In this document: one piece after another, positions 221 through 6,737 of the stretch | Layout: each line of letters opens with the position of its first letter | How positions within the stretch are numbered: the first letter of the stretch is position 1 | Source: an uncultured delta proteobacterium | Lineage (GTDB): Bacteria; Desulfobacterota; Desulfobulbia; Desulfobulbales; JAGXFP01 | DNA: 64,000 nucleotides | Assembly (NCBI GenBank): GCA_963807225.1 | Contig: CAWEAD010000005.1 | Location: forward strand, 544,456 to 608,455 | Direction: 5' to 3' | Notes under the pieces: generated by a model | Told to the model about the DNA's origin: nothing | Database searches by the model: none | Seen by the model: the letters and a program-made list of their open reading frames with translations, nothing else | Program-made: the position numbers and the translations under genes

Positions 221-2578
221 TTATTTCTTCTCTTTCCAGACCGTGCCCTTGGCGGTATCTATCACCTCGATGCCCTGACTGGCTAACTGATCGCGAACCC
301 CATCGGCCCGAGTCCAGTCTCCCTGGCGGCGGGCCGCCTCGCGCTCGCGAATCAGCTTGTCGATCTCTGGAGCCAGAGGGCATTTATCAAGATTCAGCAG
401 GTTCAGCACAGCGTTGACCCGTCTCAGGGTTTCCAGAATGTAATTCTTCTGATCCCGATCCAACTGACCCTGGCTGACTATGGGGTTGACCTTCTTGATA
501 AAGTCAAAGAGCACCCCGAAGGCCCGCGAGACATTGAGATCGTCGTCCATGGCACTGAAAAATCCTTCCTCCAGCTTGGTAAGAAAGGCGGCCACTTCCG
601 GGTGCGGCAGGTCGGGCTGCAGGCAAAGGAGTTTGGTGCAGAACTCGTCCAGCCGCTTGAGGCTGGACAAAGCCACATCCAACTTGCGGTAGGAAAAGTC
701 GATTGGCTTGCGGTAATGGGACCGCAGCAGGAAGTAGCGAACCTCCCGGGCCGTATATCCCTTGTCCAGCAAAGCGCGCAAGGTCAGCAAGGTGCCGGAA
801 TCGCGGTTCATCTTTTTGCCATCCACCAGTACCAGTTCGCTGTGCAGCCAGTAATTTGCCAAAGGCTTGCCGGATAAAGCCTCAGCAATAGCGATCTCGT
901 TTTCATGGTGGGGGAAGATAAGATCCCTGCTGCTGGAATGGATATCGATGGTCTCACCCAGAAAATGGCAGGACATGGCGGCACATTCGATATGCCAGCC
1001 CGGTCGCATGTTGCCCCATTCGGTAGCGTAGAAAATACCGCTTTTCAACTCGGTTAAAGCTGAGCGTTTGAGCAGGGTGAAGTCGACCGGGCTGTCTTTC
1101 TCATAGTCGTCCAGATCCACGGTACGTCCATGCTGGATCTTGCCCAGATCGATTCCGGAGAGGCGCCCGTAGCCGGAGAACTTAGAAATGTCAAAATAGA
1201 TCGACCCATGCTTTTCGTAAGCGAAACCACGTTTCACCAACTCTCTCGCCATCTCGATCATCTGTTCGACATGCTCCGAGGCCCGCGGGTATCCGGTAGC
1301 CGGCAAGACCCCCAAGGACGTGATATCAACCTTGAACTGATCGATGTACCGAGAGGTAAAGTCCTTAACCGACTCATGACTGGCCTGAGCGCCGCGGATG
1401 GTGTTGTCATCGAGGTCGGTGAAATTCATATAGAATTTCACCGTGTAGCCGTGGACGGTCAGTACCCGGTTGAGTAAATCGGAATGGATGAAGCGCCGAC
1501 AATGATCAAGGGTGGCTGGTTCATGAGCGGTGGGGCCGCAAGTATAGAAGGTGACCTGACCCGGTTTAATCGGCTTGAACAACTCCTTGCGTTTGCTCAA
1601 GGTATTGTGGAACCGCAACCTGGAGATCTTCTCCGGCTCGGAATTGGCGACCTCGGCGCTGAATAGAGAAGTGGACAGATATTTTTCCCCGCCATCGGGA
1701 AAAATCACTACGATAAGCCCACCTTCATCTTTGATCTGCTCGGCGCGGGTTAAAGCGGCGCACAGGGCCGCTCCGGAACTCATCCCCACAAAAACCCCCT
1801 CACGGGCGGCAAGTTGACGAGCCTTGTTAAAGGCCTCCTCATCAGGAATGTTAATGATCTGGAATGGTTCGTTGCGTCGAAAGATCCCGGGCTTATAGGA
1901 TTCCTTCATATTCTTGAGCCCTTGCAACTTATGGCCCAGAAAAGGCTCCATGGCAGTAACTTTGACCTCTGGATGGTGCTCGGCAAAATAGCGGCAGATG
2001 CCCATGGCTGTGCCGGTAGTGCCCAGGGTGGCAACCACGTCGGTAACCTTGCCGCCGGTCTGTTCCCAGATTTCCGGCCCGGTGTACTTGTAATGGGTCT
2101 GCCAGTTGGCGTCGTTATTGAATTGATCGGTAAGGAAATAACGATCCGGATGTTCACGGGCCATGGCATAGGCCTGTTCGATGGCTCCGTCGGTGGCCCG
2201 TTTGGCCGGGGTAAGTAGAATCTCGGCCCCGTAGCCGGTCATGATTTTACGCCGTTCGATGGAAGCCGACTCAGGCATCACCAGCTGACAACGGTATCCC
2301 TTAACTGCACAGACCATGGCCAGGCCGATACCGGTATTGCCGCTGGTCGCTTCCAACACCGTGCGGTCCGGAGTCAGTTCACCGCTCGCCTCGGCGTCCT
2401 CGATCATATTCAGGGCTATCCGATCCTTTACCGAACCACCGGGGTTGAAAGATTCAAGCTTGGCGTAAATGGCCACCTTCTTGAAAGAGTTGAGCCGTTT
2501 GATCGGCACGATGGGCGTGTTGCCGATCAGTTCAAGGATGTTCTGCGGTTGCTTGGCTAGTCGTGGACGAGTGGTCAT
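221..2578 (-). CDS. Fusion of PLP-dependent cysteine synthase (CysM-like, about aa 1-305) and a cysteinyl-tRNA synthetase-like module with degenerate ATP motifs
   Basis: N-terminal part has PGGSVKDR (PLP Lys), TSGNTG and GTTGT. C-terminal part has CGPT, MNFTDLDD, DFTLLK, RPGWHIECAAM, FPHHENEIA, HYRKPIDFS and an anticodon-domain-like end (REAARRQGDWTRADGVRDQL). One continuous ORF. Confidence 0.9.
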   Translation of the reverse strand: MTTRPRLAKQPQNILELIGNTPIVPIKRLNSFKKVAIYAKLESFNPGGSVKDRIALNMIEDAEASGELTPDRTVLEATSGNTGIGLAMVCAVKGYRCQLVMPESASIERRKIMTGYGAEILLTPAKRATDGAIEQAYAMAREHPDRYFLTDQFNNDANWQTHYKYTGPEIWEQTGGKVTDVVATLGTTGTAMGICRYFAEHHPEVKVTAMEPFLGHKLQGLKNMKESYKPGIFRRNEPFQIINIPDEEAFNKARQLAAREGVFVGMSSGAALCAALTRAEQIKDEGGLIVVIFPDGGEKYLSTSLFSAEVANSEPEKISRLRFHNTLSKRKELFKPIKPGQVTFYTCGPTAHEPATLDHCRRFIHSDLLNRVLTVHGYTVKFYMNFTDLDDNTIRGAQASHESVKDFTSRYIDQFKVDITSLGVLPATGYPRASEHVEQMIEMARELVKRGFAYEKHGSIYFDISKFSGYGRLSGIDLGKIQHGRTVDLDDYEKDSPVDFTLLKRSALTELKSGIFYATEWGNMRPGWHIECAAMSCHFLGETIDIHSSSRDLIFPHHENEIAIAEALSGKPLANYWLHSELVLVDGKKMNRDSGTLLTLRALLDKGYTAREVRYFLLRSHYRKPIDFSYRKLDVALSSLKRLDEFCTKLLCLQPDLPHPEVAAFLTKLEEGFFSAMDDDLNVSRAFGVLFDFIKKVNPIVSQGQLDRDQKNYILETLRRVNAVLNLLNLDKCPLAPEIDKLIREREAARRQGDWTRADGVRDQLASQGIEVIDTAKGTVWKEKK

Positions 2579-2647: not shown

Positions 2648-2686
2648 AAAAAAAGCAAGCTTCCCTAACTGGGGGGAAGCTTGCTT
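2648..2686 (-). terminator. Intrinsic terminator of the dsrMKJOP operon
   Basis: 13-bp perfect stem (aagcaagcttccc / gggaagcttgctt) followed by a 7-U tract on the minus strand, just after the dsrP stop. Confidence 0.85.
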
Positions 2687-2723: not shown

Positions 2724-3893
2724 TTAACTCTCCTTGGTCAGTTTTACGGAAATAGCCGCTTTATAGAGGATGGTGAGGATGAAGAAGCCTGTGGCCCAAA
2801 CCCCGATGGTGATCCCAACTTCACCTGCTGAAGGATAGTACTCGGTGACGTACTCCAGGGGGCTGGGAACGAAGCCGCCCAGCACCAGGCCCAAACCCTT
2901 ATCGATCCAGAGCGACAGGAAGATCGCTCCGCAAAGCCAAGCGATCAATGTATAGCTCTCACGCACCTTGGGGAAAAGCAGGGCGATGGTGGCGGAAATA
3001 CCGATGACCATGGAAAAGCGCATGGGTAAAACAAGATTGTTGTAGGTGACGCCGTCTTCGGTAAGCCCGAAGAATAGATAATCCAGGGTGTGCATATGCC
3101 CTGGGATCTGGCTGTAATAGGCGACGAAGAACTCCAGTCCGACAAAGAAGAAGTTTAAAATGGCGGCGTAGGTGATGATGGTGACCAGCTTATTGATCGC
3201 TTCCCGACCAGCATCGAACGCGGTGAACCGGCGAAGGATCAAGGCGCAGATGACCAGCAGGGAAGGACCGGCGGCAAAGGCCGAGGCCAGGAAACGCGGG
3301 GCCAGGATGGCGGTCAGCCAGTAATGGCGCCCCGGTAGACCACAGTAAAGAAAGGCGGTAACCGTGTGGATGCTGATTGCCCAGGGAATGGAGATGTAAA
3401 TCAATACCTTAACCCATTTGGGCGGCGGAACGTTCGCCTTCTCGCAGTTCAGTATCACCCAGCCGCCGACGATGTTCAGGAACAGGTAACCGTTCAAAAC
3501 GATCATGTCCCAGAAAAGGATCGAGTTAGGGGTCGGATGCAACAGCACGTTCAGAGCTCGCATCGGCTGGCCCAGATCGGCCAGGATGAACATCAGGCAC
3601 ATCGCAACCGCGGCCACGGCCATGAATTCGCCGAGGATGGTAATCCGCCCGAAAGCCTTATAGTTGTGGAGGTAGTATGGCAACACCAGCATTACCCCAC
3701 CGGCTGCTACCCCGACCAGGAAGGTGAACTGGGAGATGTAAAGCCCCCAGGAGACGTCGCGGCTCATGCCGGTGTAACCGAGACCATAGTTGAACTGCTG
3801 GACATAGCAGGCCCCGCCGATGCCCATTAGCACCAGGAGGAAGGTCAGCCAGGTCCAGTATTTGCTGTCGCCAGTAAGCGCTTTCTCAATCAT
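2724..3893 (-). CDS. dsrP: DsrP, NrfD/PsrC-family integral membrane subunit
   Basis: Multi-TM protein with SWGLYISQFTFLVGVAAG and ADLGQPMR NrfD motifs; last gene of the dsrMKJOP cluster. Confidence 0.92.
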   Translation of the reverse strand: MIEKALTGDSKYWTWLTFLLVLMGIGGACYVQQFNYGLGYTGMSRDVSWGLYISQFTFLVGVAAGGVMLVLPYYLHNYKAFGRITILGEFMAVAAVAMCLMFILADLGQPMRALNVLLHPTPNSILFWDMIVLNGYLFLNIVGGWVILNCEKANVPPPKWVKVLIYISIPWAISIHTVTAFLYCGLPGRHYWLTAILAPRFLASAFAAGPSLLVICALILRRFTAFDAGREAINKLVTIITYAAILNFFFVGLEFFVAYYSQIPGHMHTLDYLFFGLTEDGVTYNNLVLPMRFSMVIGISATIALLFPKVRESYTLIAWLCGAIFLSLWIDKGLGLVLGGFVPSPLEYVTEYYPSAGEVGITIGVWATGFFILTILYKAAISVKLTKES

Positions 3894-3904
3894 GATATTT
3901 CACC

Positions 3905-4708
3905 TCAGATGATATAGAAAATCGACGGATGGGTACCAAGCGCCGGTTTCCGCTGGATGGTAAACTTCTCCTTGAGGACCTGGCTGACCTCGGAATTCGG
4001 ATCGTTCAGGTCGCCAAAGAACATGGCGCCACTGGGTCGAGCCTTCTCGACACAGGCTGGTTGCATACCTTCGGCCAAGCGCTCATTGCACAAGGTGCAT
4101 TTTTCTACCACGCCGCGCATCCGGGTAGGAAATTCAGGGTTCTCCTTTTTGATAAAAGGCCGTGGGTCACGCCAGTTGAAGCTCCTGGCGCCGTAAGGAC
4201 AAGCGGCCATGCAAAAGCGGCAACCGATGCAGCGATGGAAGTCCATCATGACAATGCCGTCGCGGTTCTTGAAGGTTGCCTTGGTCGGGCAGGCCCGGAC
4301 GCAAGGCGGGTTGTCGCAGTGGTTGCAGAGAGTCAATACCGGTATGTTCTCCAATTCCTCATTGCGCTTATACTGACTGTGCTCGGGAAAGGCATGTTCG
4401 AAGTTCTCGGTCCAGATCCACTTGACCGCATCCTTCTTGTCGTCCCCAAAATCAGGGACGTTGTGAATTGAATGGCAGGCATCTATACAAAGCTGAGTCA
4501 GCCCCTGATCCTCCGCGAATTTCCGGGTATCGATCACGAAGCCATAGCGCTTGGCACCACTCACCACCTCCGTTCCCTTTTCGGCGGCCTCACCTGTGCT
4601 GGCCTGAACCTCACCCTTGAGCAGAGAATTAAAGGCGGTAGGGGCACCAATGCCGGCAATGGCGGAGAGGCCGGCTATCTTGAGAAATTTTCTTCTGCCG
4701 TTATCCAT
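3905..4708 (-). CDS. dsrO: DsrO, periplasmic Fe-S (NrfC-like) subunit
   Basis: Tat signal (RRKFLK); CNHCDNPPCVRACP, CIGCRFCMAACP and EKCTLC motifs. Confidence 0.93.
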   Translation of the reverse strand: MDNGRRKFLKIAGLSAIAGIGAPTAFNSLLKGEVQASTGEAAEKGTEVVSGAKRYGFVIDTRKFAEDQGLTQLCIDACHSIHNVPDFGDDKKDAVKWIWTENFEHAFPEHSQYKRNEELENIPVLTLCNHCDNPPCVRACPTKATFKNRDGIVMMDFHRCIGCRFCMAACPYGARSFNWRDPRPFIKKENPEFPTRMRGVVEKCTLCNERLAEGMQPACVEKARPSGAMFFGDLNDPNSEVSQVLKEKFTIQRKPALGTHPSIFYII

Positions 4709-5097
4709 TAGTTGGCCTCCTTAGGCTGAAGATGGCAATCCCAGCAGTAAGGTTTTACAGCTGCGTAGGTGTGGCACTCGTCGCAGAATTTCTTCTTGCT
4801 GGCGTGGCACTTCATGCAACCTTTCTGCAAGCTCCTGATATATTCGGTGCCGTCGGAGGTCTGCCCGTGACGGGTACCTCCCATTCGGACGATGTCGTCA
4901 CGCCACTCGTTGAGCAGCACCATGTGGGACTTTCGCATTTCGGCAGTGGGCAGAACGCACTGCTTGGCGATGGTCGGTTTTTCCGGCACTGGTAACTTGC
5001 CGCCCCCACCAAATCCGTACCAGATCGGGAATGTCACCAGACCAACAAACACAATCAAACCGGGTATGATTTTTCCTTTGTCATACATTGGCATCAC
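4708..5097 (-). CDS. dsrJ: DsrJ, triheme cytochrome c
   Basis: Three CxxCH motifs (CMKCH, CDECH, CWDCH), an N-terminal TM anchor, and position between dsrK and dsrO. Confidence 0.93.
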   Translation of the reverse strand: MMPMYDKGKIIPGLIVFVGLVTFPIWYGFGGGGKLPVPEKPTIAKQCVLPTAEMRKSHMVLLNEWRDDIVRMGGTRHGQTSDGTEYIRSLQKGCMKCHASKKKFCDECHTYAAVKPYCWDCHLQPKEAN

Positions 5098-6737
5098 CCT
5101 TCCATTCCTTCAAGGGGTTCAAACCGGAGCCCGGTTTCCCTTTCTTTTTCACCCTCCATAACCAGGGCGTTGCCGACCAGCTCGGAAACACCGCAGACCT
5201 CGACATCAGGATTCCAGTACTGCATCAGAGACAGCAGCGTCGCCCGGTCGATGGCGCAGACGCAGGAGAGCATGTTGACACCGTATCTGTCATGCACGTG
5301 TTTAACGGCGTTGGCTCTGGGTAGCCCGGCCCGCATGCGCAGATCCATGATTTCGCCGGTGTTGAGGCCGGTGCCGCTACCGCAGCAGAATGTCTGCTCG
5401 CGAATGGTGTTCTCCGGCATCTCGTAGAAGTTATTTATTACATTTTTGAGGACATACCTGGGTTCTTCCAGAAGTCCCATGGCCCGGGCCGGGTTACAGG
5501 AATCGTGGAAGGTCACCTTGCGATGATTGTTCCGGGAAGGATCGAGCTTCAGCTTTCCATGCTTGATCAGATCAGCGGTAAACTCACTGATATGGACCAT
5601 CTTGGTGGAGGCGGCATTCTCGAAAACTGTGCCGGTGATCGGCGACTTGGGCACCTCCAGGAAGTCGGCCGGGCCGTTCATGGTATCCATGTACTGATGG
5701 ATGACCCGCCACATGTGGCCGCATTCGCCACCCAGGATCCACTTTACTCCCAAGCGCTTGGCCTCGGCGTACATCTTGGCGTTCAGTTTCTTCATCAGCT
5801 CATTGTTGGTGAAGAGACCGAAGTTACCGCCTTCCGAGGCATAAGTCGACCAGGTATAGTCCAGGCCAAGATGCTCGAAGAGCAAGAGATAACCCATGGC
5901 CGTGTATATGCCGGGCTCGGCGAAGACATCGGCCGAAGGAGTGATGAAGAGGATCTCGGCCCCCTTGCGGTTAAAAGTTGGCTCGATGCGAATCCCGGTG
6001 ATCTCCTCGATATCATCACAGAGGTAACCGATATTGTCCTTGAAGGTGTGGGGCTGTAACCCCATATGGTTGCCGGTCCGGTTGGAGTTGGAAGCCGGTT
6101 CCAGAATCCAGTTGGTGTTGACCCCTACCAGATGCAACAGTTCCCGGGCCATCATGGTAATCTCGGCGGTATCGATGCCATAGGGGCAGAAAACCGAACA
6201 GCGCCGACACTCGGTGCACTGGTAGAAGTACATGAACCATTCCTTCAATACCTCGAAGGTCATCTCCCGTCCGCCGGCCAGCTTGCCGAGAATCTTGCCG
6301 GCTTTGGTAAACTCGTTACGGTAAATCGAGCGTAACAGCTCGGCCCGCAACACCGGCATGTTCTTGGGATCGCCGGTACCCAGGAAGAAGTGACATTTGT
6401 CGGCACAGGCACCACACCTGACACAGCAGTCCATGAAGATTTTGAAGGAACGGAATTTGTCCAGCCGCTCCTTGATTCCCTGGATGATTATTTCCTTCCA
6501 GTTTTCCGGCAGCTTCCAATCTTCATCCTCGGGTTTCCACAACCGTGATTCGCCGAACTTGCCGGGCAGGTTTTTGTCAAGGTAGGCGGCCATTTCCGGT
6601 TTTCCGGGGTAACAATAGTTGCCCGGCTTGAAGACCGCCGGCACGTCCATCCACTCCTTGGTCGGGACGGCGCCCGTCATCATCGACGGGTCCTTCGCCA
6701 CGCTGACGCTCATTTGCTCAACTTTAGTATCTGCCAT
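5094..6737 (-). CDS. dsrK: DsrK, HdrD-like Fe-S/CCG catalytic subunit
   Basis: CVRCGACADKC, CTECRRCSVFCP, ECGH, FHDSC, FCCGSG and CAIDRA motifs. Confidence 0.95.
   Translation of the reverse strand: MADTKVEQMSVSVAKDPSMMTGAVPTKEWMDVPAVFKPGNYCYPGKPEMAAYLDKNLPGKFGESRLWKPEDEDWKLPENWKEIIIQGIKERLDKFRSFKIFMDCCVRCGACADKCHFFLGTGDPKNMPVLRAELLRSIYRNEFTKAGKILGKLAGGREMTFEVLKEWFMYFYQCTECRRCSVFCPYGIDTAEITMMARELLHLVGVNTNWILEPASNSNRTGNHMGLQPHTFKDNIGYLCDDIEEITGIRIEPTFNRKGAEILFITPSADVFAEPGIYTAMGYLLLFEHLGLDYTWSTYASEGGNFGLFTNNELMKKLNAKMYAEAKRLGVKWILGGECGHMWRVIHQYMDTMNGPADFLEVPKSPITGTVFENAASTKMVHISEFTADLIKHGKLKLDPSRNNHRKVTFHDSCNPARAMGLLEEPRYVLKNVINNFYEMPENTIREQTFCCGSGTGLNTGEIMDLRMRAGLPRANAVKHVHDRYGVNMLSCVCAIDRATLLSLMQYWNPDVEVCGVSELVGNALVMEGEKERETGLRFEPLEGMEG

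Follow-up and report, generated by a model that had tools for sequence, protein, structure and literature searches.

The 64,000-nucleotide (nt) stretch analysed here, hereafter the window, comes from contig CAWEAD010000005.1 of an uncultured member of the order Desulfobulbales and carries on its minus strand a single gene in which a CysM-type cysteine synthase is followed by a module resembling cysteinyl-tRNA synthetase (CysRS). All nt coordinates are positions in the window, amino acid (aa) numbers refer to the fused open reading frame (ORF), and canonical residue numbers (H37, K73 etc.) are those of Escherichia coli CysRS in structure 1LI5. The gene is organized as follows:

221..2578, minus strand, fused gene (P0001), an open ORF of 785 aa plus stop codon
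1664..2545, minus strand, CysM-type cysteine synthase domain (aa 12-305; Pfam PALP)
1619..1663, minus strand, variable linker of about 15 residues (aa 306-320; omega, the dN/dS ratio, 0.35-0.8)
659..1618, minus strand, CysRS-like Rossmann fold and CP domain with remodelled ATP site (aa 321-640; Pfam tRNA-synt_1e)
224..658, minus strand, helical bundle and anticodon-binding domain (aa 641-785; Pfam DALR_2, CysS_C)

Pfam matches on the fused protein comprise PALP at aa 15-295 (E 3e-71), tRNA-synt_1e at aa 334-636 (E 4e-90), DALR_2 at aa 673-728 and CysS_C at aa 735-781. The protein also passes the cut-offs of TIGR00435 for canonical CysRS (397.3 bits, cut-off 340) and of TIGR01136 for the cysteine synthases CysK/CysM (361.6 bits, cut-off 344.15). 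The fused ORF is not a product of chance, because a search of 5.8 billion proteins returned more than 120 clusters with the same four domains at 70-94% identity, labelled as Desulfobulbaceae, Desulfurivibrionaceae, Desulfobulbia or Thermodesulfobacteriota. An AlphaFold2 (AF2) model, with a mean predicted local distance difference test score (pLDDT) of 81, pLDDT <50 across residues 299-316 and a predicted template modelling score of 0.56, depicts two folded modules on a disordered tether whose mutual orientation is not confident. In Foldseek comparisons the CysRS-like part reaches a template modelling (TM) score of 0.90 to both 8QHP and 1LI5, and the synthase part 0.89 to 2BHS.

The synthase half retains the motifs SVKDR (with the pyridoxal phosphate (PLP) lysine K51 at nt 2426-2428), TSGNTG, DQFNN, GTTGT and MSSGA, and its closest solved relatives are the CysM enzymes of E. 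coli and Salmonella. It shares its N-terminal 305 aa, including all PLP and substrate-loop motifs, and its fold (TM 0.89) with CysM, or O-acetylserine sulfhydrylase B (2BHS, 2JC3; Mycobacterium tuberculosis 3DKI), but differs in carrying a 465-aa CysRS-like extension and in scoring below the CysM equivalog model (TIGR01138; 342.2 bits, cut-off 394.2), so that we refer to it as CysM-like; O-acetylserine and O-phosphoserine are its candidate substrates. In three genomes that are 99-100% complete the fused half is the sole TIGR01136 match, and thus the only cysteine synthase of these relatives, which predicts that it is a working enzyme. A stand-alone CysM of the fused type (363 bits, open frame of 379 aa; G002:C9:40868-41743) was observed in a genus without the fusion, suggesting that the CysRS-like half has been lost or separated there.

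To compare the motifs of the CysRS-like half with those of the canonical enzyme, we used the alignment to 1LI5 together with a 243-sequence alignment of 140 family members and 103 canonical CysRS, plus E. coli. At the ATP site, the elements of the window's protein are as follows:

1502..1513, minus strand, TLDH at the HIGH-equivalent position (H37-H40), aa 356-359, followed by Cys360
1394..1405, minus strand, NTIR at the KIIK-equivalent position (K73-K76), aa 392-395, with N392 invariant across the family
929..937, minus strand, SSS at the GGG-equivalent position (225-227), aa 548-550
800..814, minus strand, KMNRD at the KMSKS-equivalent position (266-270), aa 589-593, with the second lysine gone and an acidic residue after it

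All 103 canonical CysRS have H37, G39, G226 and K269, and 95 of them have lysine at position 73, whereas in the family these positions are replaced or variable. Residue 73 is asparagine and residue 226 serine or alanine in all 140 members; position 37 is N in 98, T in 19 and H in only 15 (N, T or S in 123 altogether); position 39 is S in 52, G in 40, A in 37 and D in 9, that is, non-glycine in 100. Lysine 269 persists in 7 of the 140 and position 270 is acidic in 128. The HIGH position is occupied by 23 variants, some of which, such as NLSL and NLSM, lack both histidines, and the KMSKS position by more than 50. Defining conserved columns as those at least 85% conserved among the 103 canonical sequences, we obtained 85 columns, 69 of which are kept in the 140 family members, nine have switched to another residue (V32A, K73N, T115S, R168T, W184L, S210A, G226S, Q241I, S242A) and seven are relaxed (Y33, H37, G39, W194, G201, K269, S270). 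The 16 changed columns take in every ATP-motif position (V32, Y33, H37, G39, K73, G226, K269 and S270), and as judged from the alignment the ATP motifs appear to be relaxed rather than re-tuned.

The residues that in canonical CysRS bind cysteine and read the tRNA are, by comparison, almost fixed:

896..1540, minus strand, span of the Zn/cysteine ligands C347, T387, W528, C532, H557 and E561
257-343, minus strand, G34-contact residues R746, R750, W755, D759 and R762 with the conserved D774, in the anticodon domain

The zinc and cysteine residues C28, G29, T68, W205, C209, H234 and E238 of the canonical enzyme correspond to C347, G348, T387, W528, C532, H557 and E561; the ligands C347, T387, W528, C532 and H557 are invariant in the 140 family sequences, and E561 is found in 139. 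In the anticodon domain R746, R750, D759, R762 and D774 are likewise present in 140 of 140, and W755 is W in 138 and Y in two. In CysRS, R427 and D436 form hydrogen bonds with G34, W432 stacks on it and R423 belongs to a water network, with R439 part of the same G34 site (PMC12684709, PMC13449415). The kept columns of this domain are R423, R427, D436, R439, G446, D451 and G455. At the other end of the tRNA, the acceptor arm is held by the CP domain in class I synthetases.

The family has also acquired conserved residues of its own:

~1520-1525, 1499-1501, 1031-1048 and 599-625, minus strand, family-specific residues at aa 352, 360, 511-516 and 652-660, respectively, with no canonical CysRS counterpart

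Cys360, directly after the HIGH position, is found in 139 of 140 sequences and His352 in 111; the other two are the insertion LKxG, four residues long, in the CP domain and the motif CLPPGLPHP, which lies in the helical region. His352 and Cys360 are located in the former ATP pocket, and a new site for binding a ligand, a metal or a partner could be built from the family-specific residues. A preliminary description of this DNA had read the locus as one ORF joining a CysM-like PLP enzyme with intact catalytic motifs to a full-length CysRS-like module that keeps the Zn/thiol ligands and the anticodon domain while HIGH, GGG and KMSKS have become TLDH, SSS and KMNRD. The 785-aa ORF, its Pfam domains and motifs bear out this architecture, all pocket residues and G34 contacts are in place, and the alignment to 1LI5 reproduces the three substitutions at exactly the positions it had given.

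The fusion is a widespread feature of its lineage. Among 151 genomes of the class (one order, Desulfobulbales; 51 genera), about 130 carry it as an open frame of 774-878 aa with 58-85% identity, and the roughly 15 genomes without it are clustered in two genera. Pairwise dN/dS values against five genomes of the same family, approximate because dS is saturated, were 0.03-0.09 for the CysM half, 0.07-0.09 for the CysRS-like catalytic part and 0.06-0.08 for the C-terminal part, compared with 0.35-0.8 for the linker. Considering that the module is 62% identical to its counterparts in four other genomes, and the canonical CysRS of the same genomes 60-65%, the dead module evolves no faster than the live enzyme. 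Frameshifts in the CysRS-like half were found in 2 of about 130 genomes, in assemblies of one and six contigs, and are likely sequencing indels, because 45-65% identity continues across the breaks and the assemblies are very contiguous. Random decay of the module is therefore ruled out by the strong purifying selection and the rarity of frameshifts.

The window's own genome (3.74 Mb, 13 contigs, 97% complete) contains a separate canonical cysS (563.5 bits with TIGR00435) in which HIGH, KIIK, DIHGGG and KMSKS are intact, and a canonical cysK (452 bits) adjoining a cysE-like gene, so the fusion represents an extra paralogous copy of both activities and not the housekeeping set. A role as the cell's tRNA-Cys charging enzyme is not supported, as canonical cysS is present in this genome and in all closed relatives with the fusion; every single-contig genome that has the fusion also has canonical cysS. 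The tRNA complement predicted by ARAGORN consists of a single tRNA-Cys(GCA) and one tRNA-Sec, which rules out a second, unusual tRNA partner. A search for SepRS (TIGR00470) across the window's genome and 20 relatives gave nothing above cut-off, with weak matches of 18-26 bits only, and the tRNA-dependent phosphoserine (Sep) route was ruled out on this ground. One relative has, beside an intact copy, a second canonical cysS that is broken by stop codons (G076:C3:325462-326954).

Taken together, these results agree with the further expectation of the preliminary description that the module has taken on a new function rather than simply decayed: constraints were lost selectively at the ATP site under strong selection (omega 0.06-0.09, against 0.35-0.8 in the linker), the degenerate motifs are a family trait in 140 sequences, a second, motif-complete cysS is encoded elsewhere in the genome, and orthologues are fused throughout the order, with one relative split into adjacent genes.

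That relative emerged from a search of 1.84 billion representatives, from which a tree of 129 CysRS modules was built. The canonical enzymes form one clade, with a Shimodaira-Hasegawa-like approximate likelihood ratio test (SH-aLRT) support of 99, and the non-canonical modules form a grade outside it, nearly all of them fused to or adjacent to a cysteine synthase. The sisters of the Desulfobulbales family, P0122 and P0126, have HLGN or HLGL and KMSRS at the ATP site. P0134 is a fragment of a 782-aa fusion, and P0135 is unfused and lies 5 bp downstream of a 308-aa PALP gene, providing a Rosetta-stone link between the synthase and the CysRS-like module. In P0123, C209 is replaced by Ser. A long-branched clade, P0127-9, which includes Desulfovibrio ferrophilus WP_126381224.1, has replaced C28, C209, H206, H235 and E238 altogether but keeps R423, D436 and D451 exactly, R427 and R439 as R or K, and an aromatic residue at 432. 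Across all non-canonical clades 45 columns are invariant, 25 of them in the CP domain. Since the deepest clades keep the CP and anticodon residues and not the Zn pocket, the tRNA-contacting parts are the feature common to synthase-linked modules, and tRNA binding appears, from these residues, to be the common denominator of the fused clades.

Several members of this wider set deserve mention in their own right. The D. ferrophilus protein (P0127) comes from a cultured organism, is a 775-aa fusion whose CysRS-like half has neither Zn ligands nor ATP motifs, and is annotated merely as 'cysteine synthase'. P0124, from a Nanoarchaeota metagenome-assembled genome (L024 7001-9307), is a 768-aa synthase-CysRS fusion with fully canonical HIGN, DIHTGG and KMSKS; it nests among real CysRS in the tree, represents an independent fusion event and is probably a true bifunctional enzyme. 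An ORF of 423-429 aa (L026 2235-3506, minus strand; G054:C1), with similar ORFs in L027 and L028, was seen in three Desulfobulbales genomes and not in that of the window. Its C-terminal ~120 residues match the helical and anticodon-binding region of CysRS (TIGR00435 positions 342-464), and NCBIfam gives nothing for its N-terminal domain; the tRNA-binding end of CysRS has here been taken up by another protein, distinct from the fusion.

Relative to canonical CysS (EC 6.1.1.16; TIGR00435; 1LI5, 1U0B, 8QHP), the module has the same order of Rossmann fold, CP domain, SC fold, helical bundle and anticodon domain, the same fold (TM 0.90) and identical Zn ligands, W205, T68 and G34 contacts; it differs in its remodelled ATP site (changes in HIGH, at K73 and G226, and at K269 and S270 of KMSKS), in being fused behind a cysteine synthase, in coexisting with a real cysS and in branching outside the canonical clade (SH-aLRT 99). 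We infer from these sequence comparisons a loss of adenylation, binding of tRNA-Cys and regulation of the synthase by that binding. Contrary to its database name "cysteine--tRNA ligase", the module is probably a control module, so far undescribed, that binds tRNA and cysteine. Carried on a flexible linker, it still folds as CysRS and keeps the zinc-thiolate cysteine pocket, the CP domain for the acceptor arm and the contacts to G34 in the GCA anticodon. In the mechanism that we propose, this dead CysRS-like module would dock tRNA-Cys and, in the Desulfobulbales lineage, also cysteine, and docking would tie the cysteine output of the synthase beside it to the status of the cell's tRNA-Cys, with charging left to the separate canonical CysRS. 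We hold with moderate confidence that the protein is a functional CysM-type synthase joined to a non-adenylating CysRS paralogue coupling cysteine synthesis to tRNA-Cys status. More tentatively, uncharged (or charged) tRNA-Cys could dock on the dead synthetase and switch the tethered synthase on (or off).

The proposed logic can be likened to that of HisZ on HisG or of the HisRS-like domain of Gcn2. HisZ is a HisRS paralogue without an anticodon domain that serves as a regulatory subunit of the ATP phosphoribosyltransferase HisG. It resembles the module described here, as we interpret the latter, in being a catalytically inactive synthetase paralogue with a retained amino-acid pocket, linked to an enzyme that makes the amino acid in question; however, HisZ is a separate subunit acting on the first enzyme of the pathway, whereas the fusion is covalent, involves the last enzyme, and has the anticodon domain as its best-kept part. 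The likeness is one of analogy, not descent, and for the fusion the loss of catalytic motifs and the physical link are evident from the sequence. The HisRS-like domain of Gcn2 is also a dead synthetase domain fused to an effector enzyme, and it senses uncharged tRNA; Gcn2 differs in being eukaryotic, not specific for one tRNA and equipped with a kinase effector, and the two are not related by descent.

Several observations weigh against this coupling between tRNA-Cys and cysteine synthesis. The AF2 model gives no defined interface between the halves and thus no structural hint of allostery, and the neighbouring genes (dsrMKJOP, dciA) give no functional clue. The module still scores above the TIGR00435 cut-off; K266 and M267 are kept, and 132 of the 140 family members retain the final histidine of HIGH, so residual or unusual nucleotide chemistry may persist. 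In the sister clade P0122, whose HLGN and KMSRS come close to the canonical motifs, the synthetase may have stayed active, and 12 of the ~130 fusion-bearing draft genomes show no canonical cysS.

The alternative that stands up best, unlikely as we judge it, is that Cys-tRNA-Cys serves as a substrate, as in cyclodipeptide synthases, that the tRNA is modified, or that a tRNA-bound residue is presented to the PLP site; transfer, persulfide or S-sulfocysteine chemistry, editing or a third route to Cys-tRNA would be possible outcomes. Retention of the cysteine pocket and of both tRNA-binding regions fits a Cys-tRNA ligand, the family's own residues H352 and C360 occupy what was the ATP pocket, and enzymes of the CysM type accept bulky nucleophiles, for example the CysO thiocarboxylate in M. 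tuberculosis. However, with SepRS not found in this genome or 20 relatives, no enzyme is at hand that could charge tRNA-Cys with a precursor, the tRNA set holds a single tRNA-Cys and nothing unusual, no acceptor or partner gene is conserved nearby, and some of the fused clades have given up the zinc pocket. The reported persulfide activity of CysRS requires four lysines; among these, K73 has been exchanged in the family, and neither K76 nor K269 is conserved. The data speak against both the tRNA-dependent Sep route and the persulfide mechanism published for the PLP lysine.

Somewhat more doubtful still is a pure cysteine sensor of the HisZ type, in which the Zn pocket would bind free cysteine and feed back on the synthase with no involvement of tRNA. 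The precedent of HisZ and HisG and the invariance of the Zn/Cys pocket in the 140 sequences (E238 in 139) are consistent with this possibility, but the anticodon contacts and the CP domain are just as invariant, related fused clades have lost C28, C209 and E238 while keeping the tRNA-contact residues, and HisZ itself dropped its anticodon domain. The data speak for a role in tRNA-Cys binding rather than for pure cysteine sensing.

It is improbable that the protein is a bifunctional, still-active CysRS with non-canonical motifs that charges tRNA-Cys with the cysteine made next door (channelling). Such an enzyme would agree with the TIGR00435 score (397 bits, above 340), with the largely kept K266, M267 and fourth HIGH residue, with P0124, whose canonical motifs among real CysRS indicate that channelling fusions exist, and with the 12 draft genomes that have the fusion but no canonical cysS. 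In contrast, H37, G39, G226, K269 and K73, near-universal in the canonical set, are replaced or variable in the family, whereas MshC, a CysRS paralogue that does use ATP, keeps HIGH and KMSKS. The fused modules of the 12 genomes are equally degenerate (e.g. NLSM, NLSL, NMSVE); ampG, the neighbour of cysS, is missing as well in 10 of the 12; in four assemblies of the same genus that do have cysS, the gene lies 11-21 kb from a contig end; and no closed genome lacks it. The missing cysS is likeliest explained by assembly gaps, although some of these genomes may really have lost the gene, and the idea that the fusion is the only CysRS in some species was rejected as the likeliest reading. Least probable is a ligand-independent scaffold, in which the dead synthetase would stabilize, oligomerize or localize the synthase and its residues would be kept for folding: the lack of an AF2 inter-domain interface, the uninformative neighbours and the frameshifts in this half in two genomes would suit it, but the surface-exposed base contacts R423, R427, D436 and R439 have no role in folding and are nevertheless invariant in 140 of 140, R423 and D436 are kept, with 427 and 439 as R/K, in clades about 30% identical, omega is ~0.07, and the two frameshifts are likely sequencing indels.

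Two other CysRS-derived proteins, MshC and CysRS*, the latter also from sulfate reducers, differ from the module in being active, ATP-using ligases (PMC9437257). The fused protein is not MshC, as it scores 190 bits against a cut-off of 485 with TIGR03447 and its ATP motifs are degenerate. CysRS* of Desulfobacterales is described as lacking the anticodon domain and as linked to SelC*/SelB* (Mukai 2017, via PMC9437257), and it still aminoacylates (PMC9437257). Nor is the fused protein CysRS*: it has an anticodon domain, its genome has only one tRNA-Sec and one tRNA-Cys, and its neighbours are dsrMKJOP. For CysRS, a 2022 review of synthetase paralogues gives only MshC and CysRS* (PMC9437257), and our literature search found no description of a cysteine synthase-CysRS fusion.

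If a role in tRNA-Cys sensing proves correct, the fusion would represent a new way to adjust the supply of an amino acid to the demand of translation in habitats rich in sulfide, where cysteine synthesis may not be limited by sulfide. Repurposed synthetase paralogues (HisZ, the Gcn2 domain, MshC, YadB, PoxA) form a small, much-studied set. The family would add to it a CysRS-derived pseudo-enzyme that keeps amino-acid and tRNA recognition and is joined to a cysteine-making enzyme, found across nearly a whole order of environmentally important sulfur cyclers, the Desulfobulbales, with more degenerate relatives in Desulfovibrio. As a tRNA reader it would let the charging of the cognate tRNA directly control a metabolic enzyme, a bacterial equivalent, within one polypeptide, of the Gcn2 or T-box principle that acts on enzyme activity instead of gene expression. 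The database name "cysteine--tRNA ligase" will mislead metabolic reconstructions and completeness checks.

Directly upstream of the fusion, on the same (minus) strand, lies a dsrMKJOP-type operon:

2653..2686, minus strand, intrinsic terminator of the dsrMKJOP operon, a 13-bp stem followed by a T-run, which bounds the fusion's own transcription unit
2724-3893, minus strand, dsrP
3905-4708, minus strand, dsrO
4708-5097, minus strand, dsrJ
5094-6737, minus strand, dsrK

The operon is found directly upstream of the fusion in 14 of 20 loci, representing six of the nine families sampled; the other three families have different neighbours, often dciA. A GC-rich terminator hairpin of 12-14 bp with a T-run follows dsrP in all 14 (the window and 13 other syntenic loci), and the possibility that the fusion is part of the dsr operon was ruled out by this strong terminator. 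An Rfam search of the fusion's leader gave no riboswitch or T-box above threshold. A 1097-aa ORF situated about 2.6 kb past the left edge of the window has no Pfam match (L009 4353-7646, plus strand; G000:C5), and the same holds for several further neighbours downstream of the fusion in this locus. Nitroreductase-family genes adjoin the P0122 and P0124 fusions (L021 9435-10118 and L024 6293-6802), which could be a coincidence.

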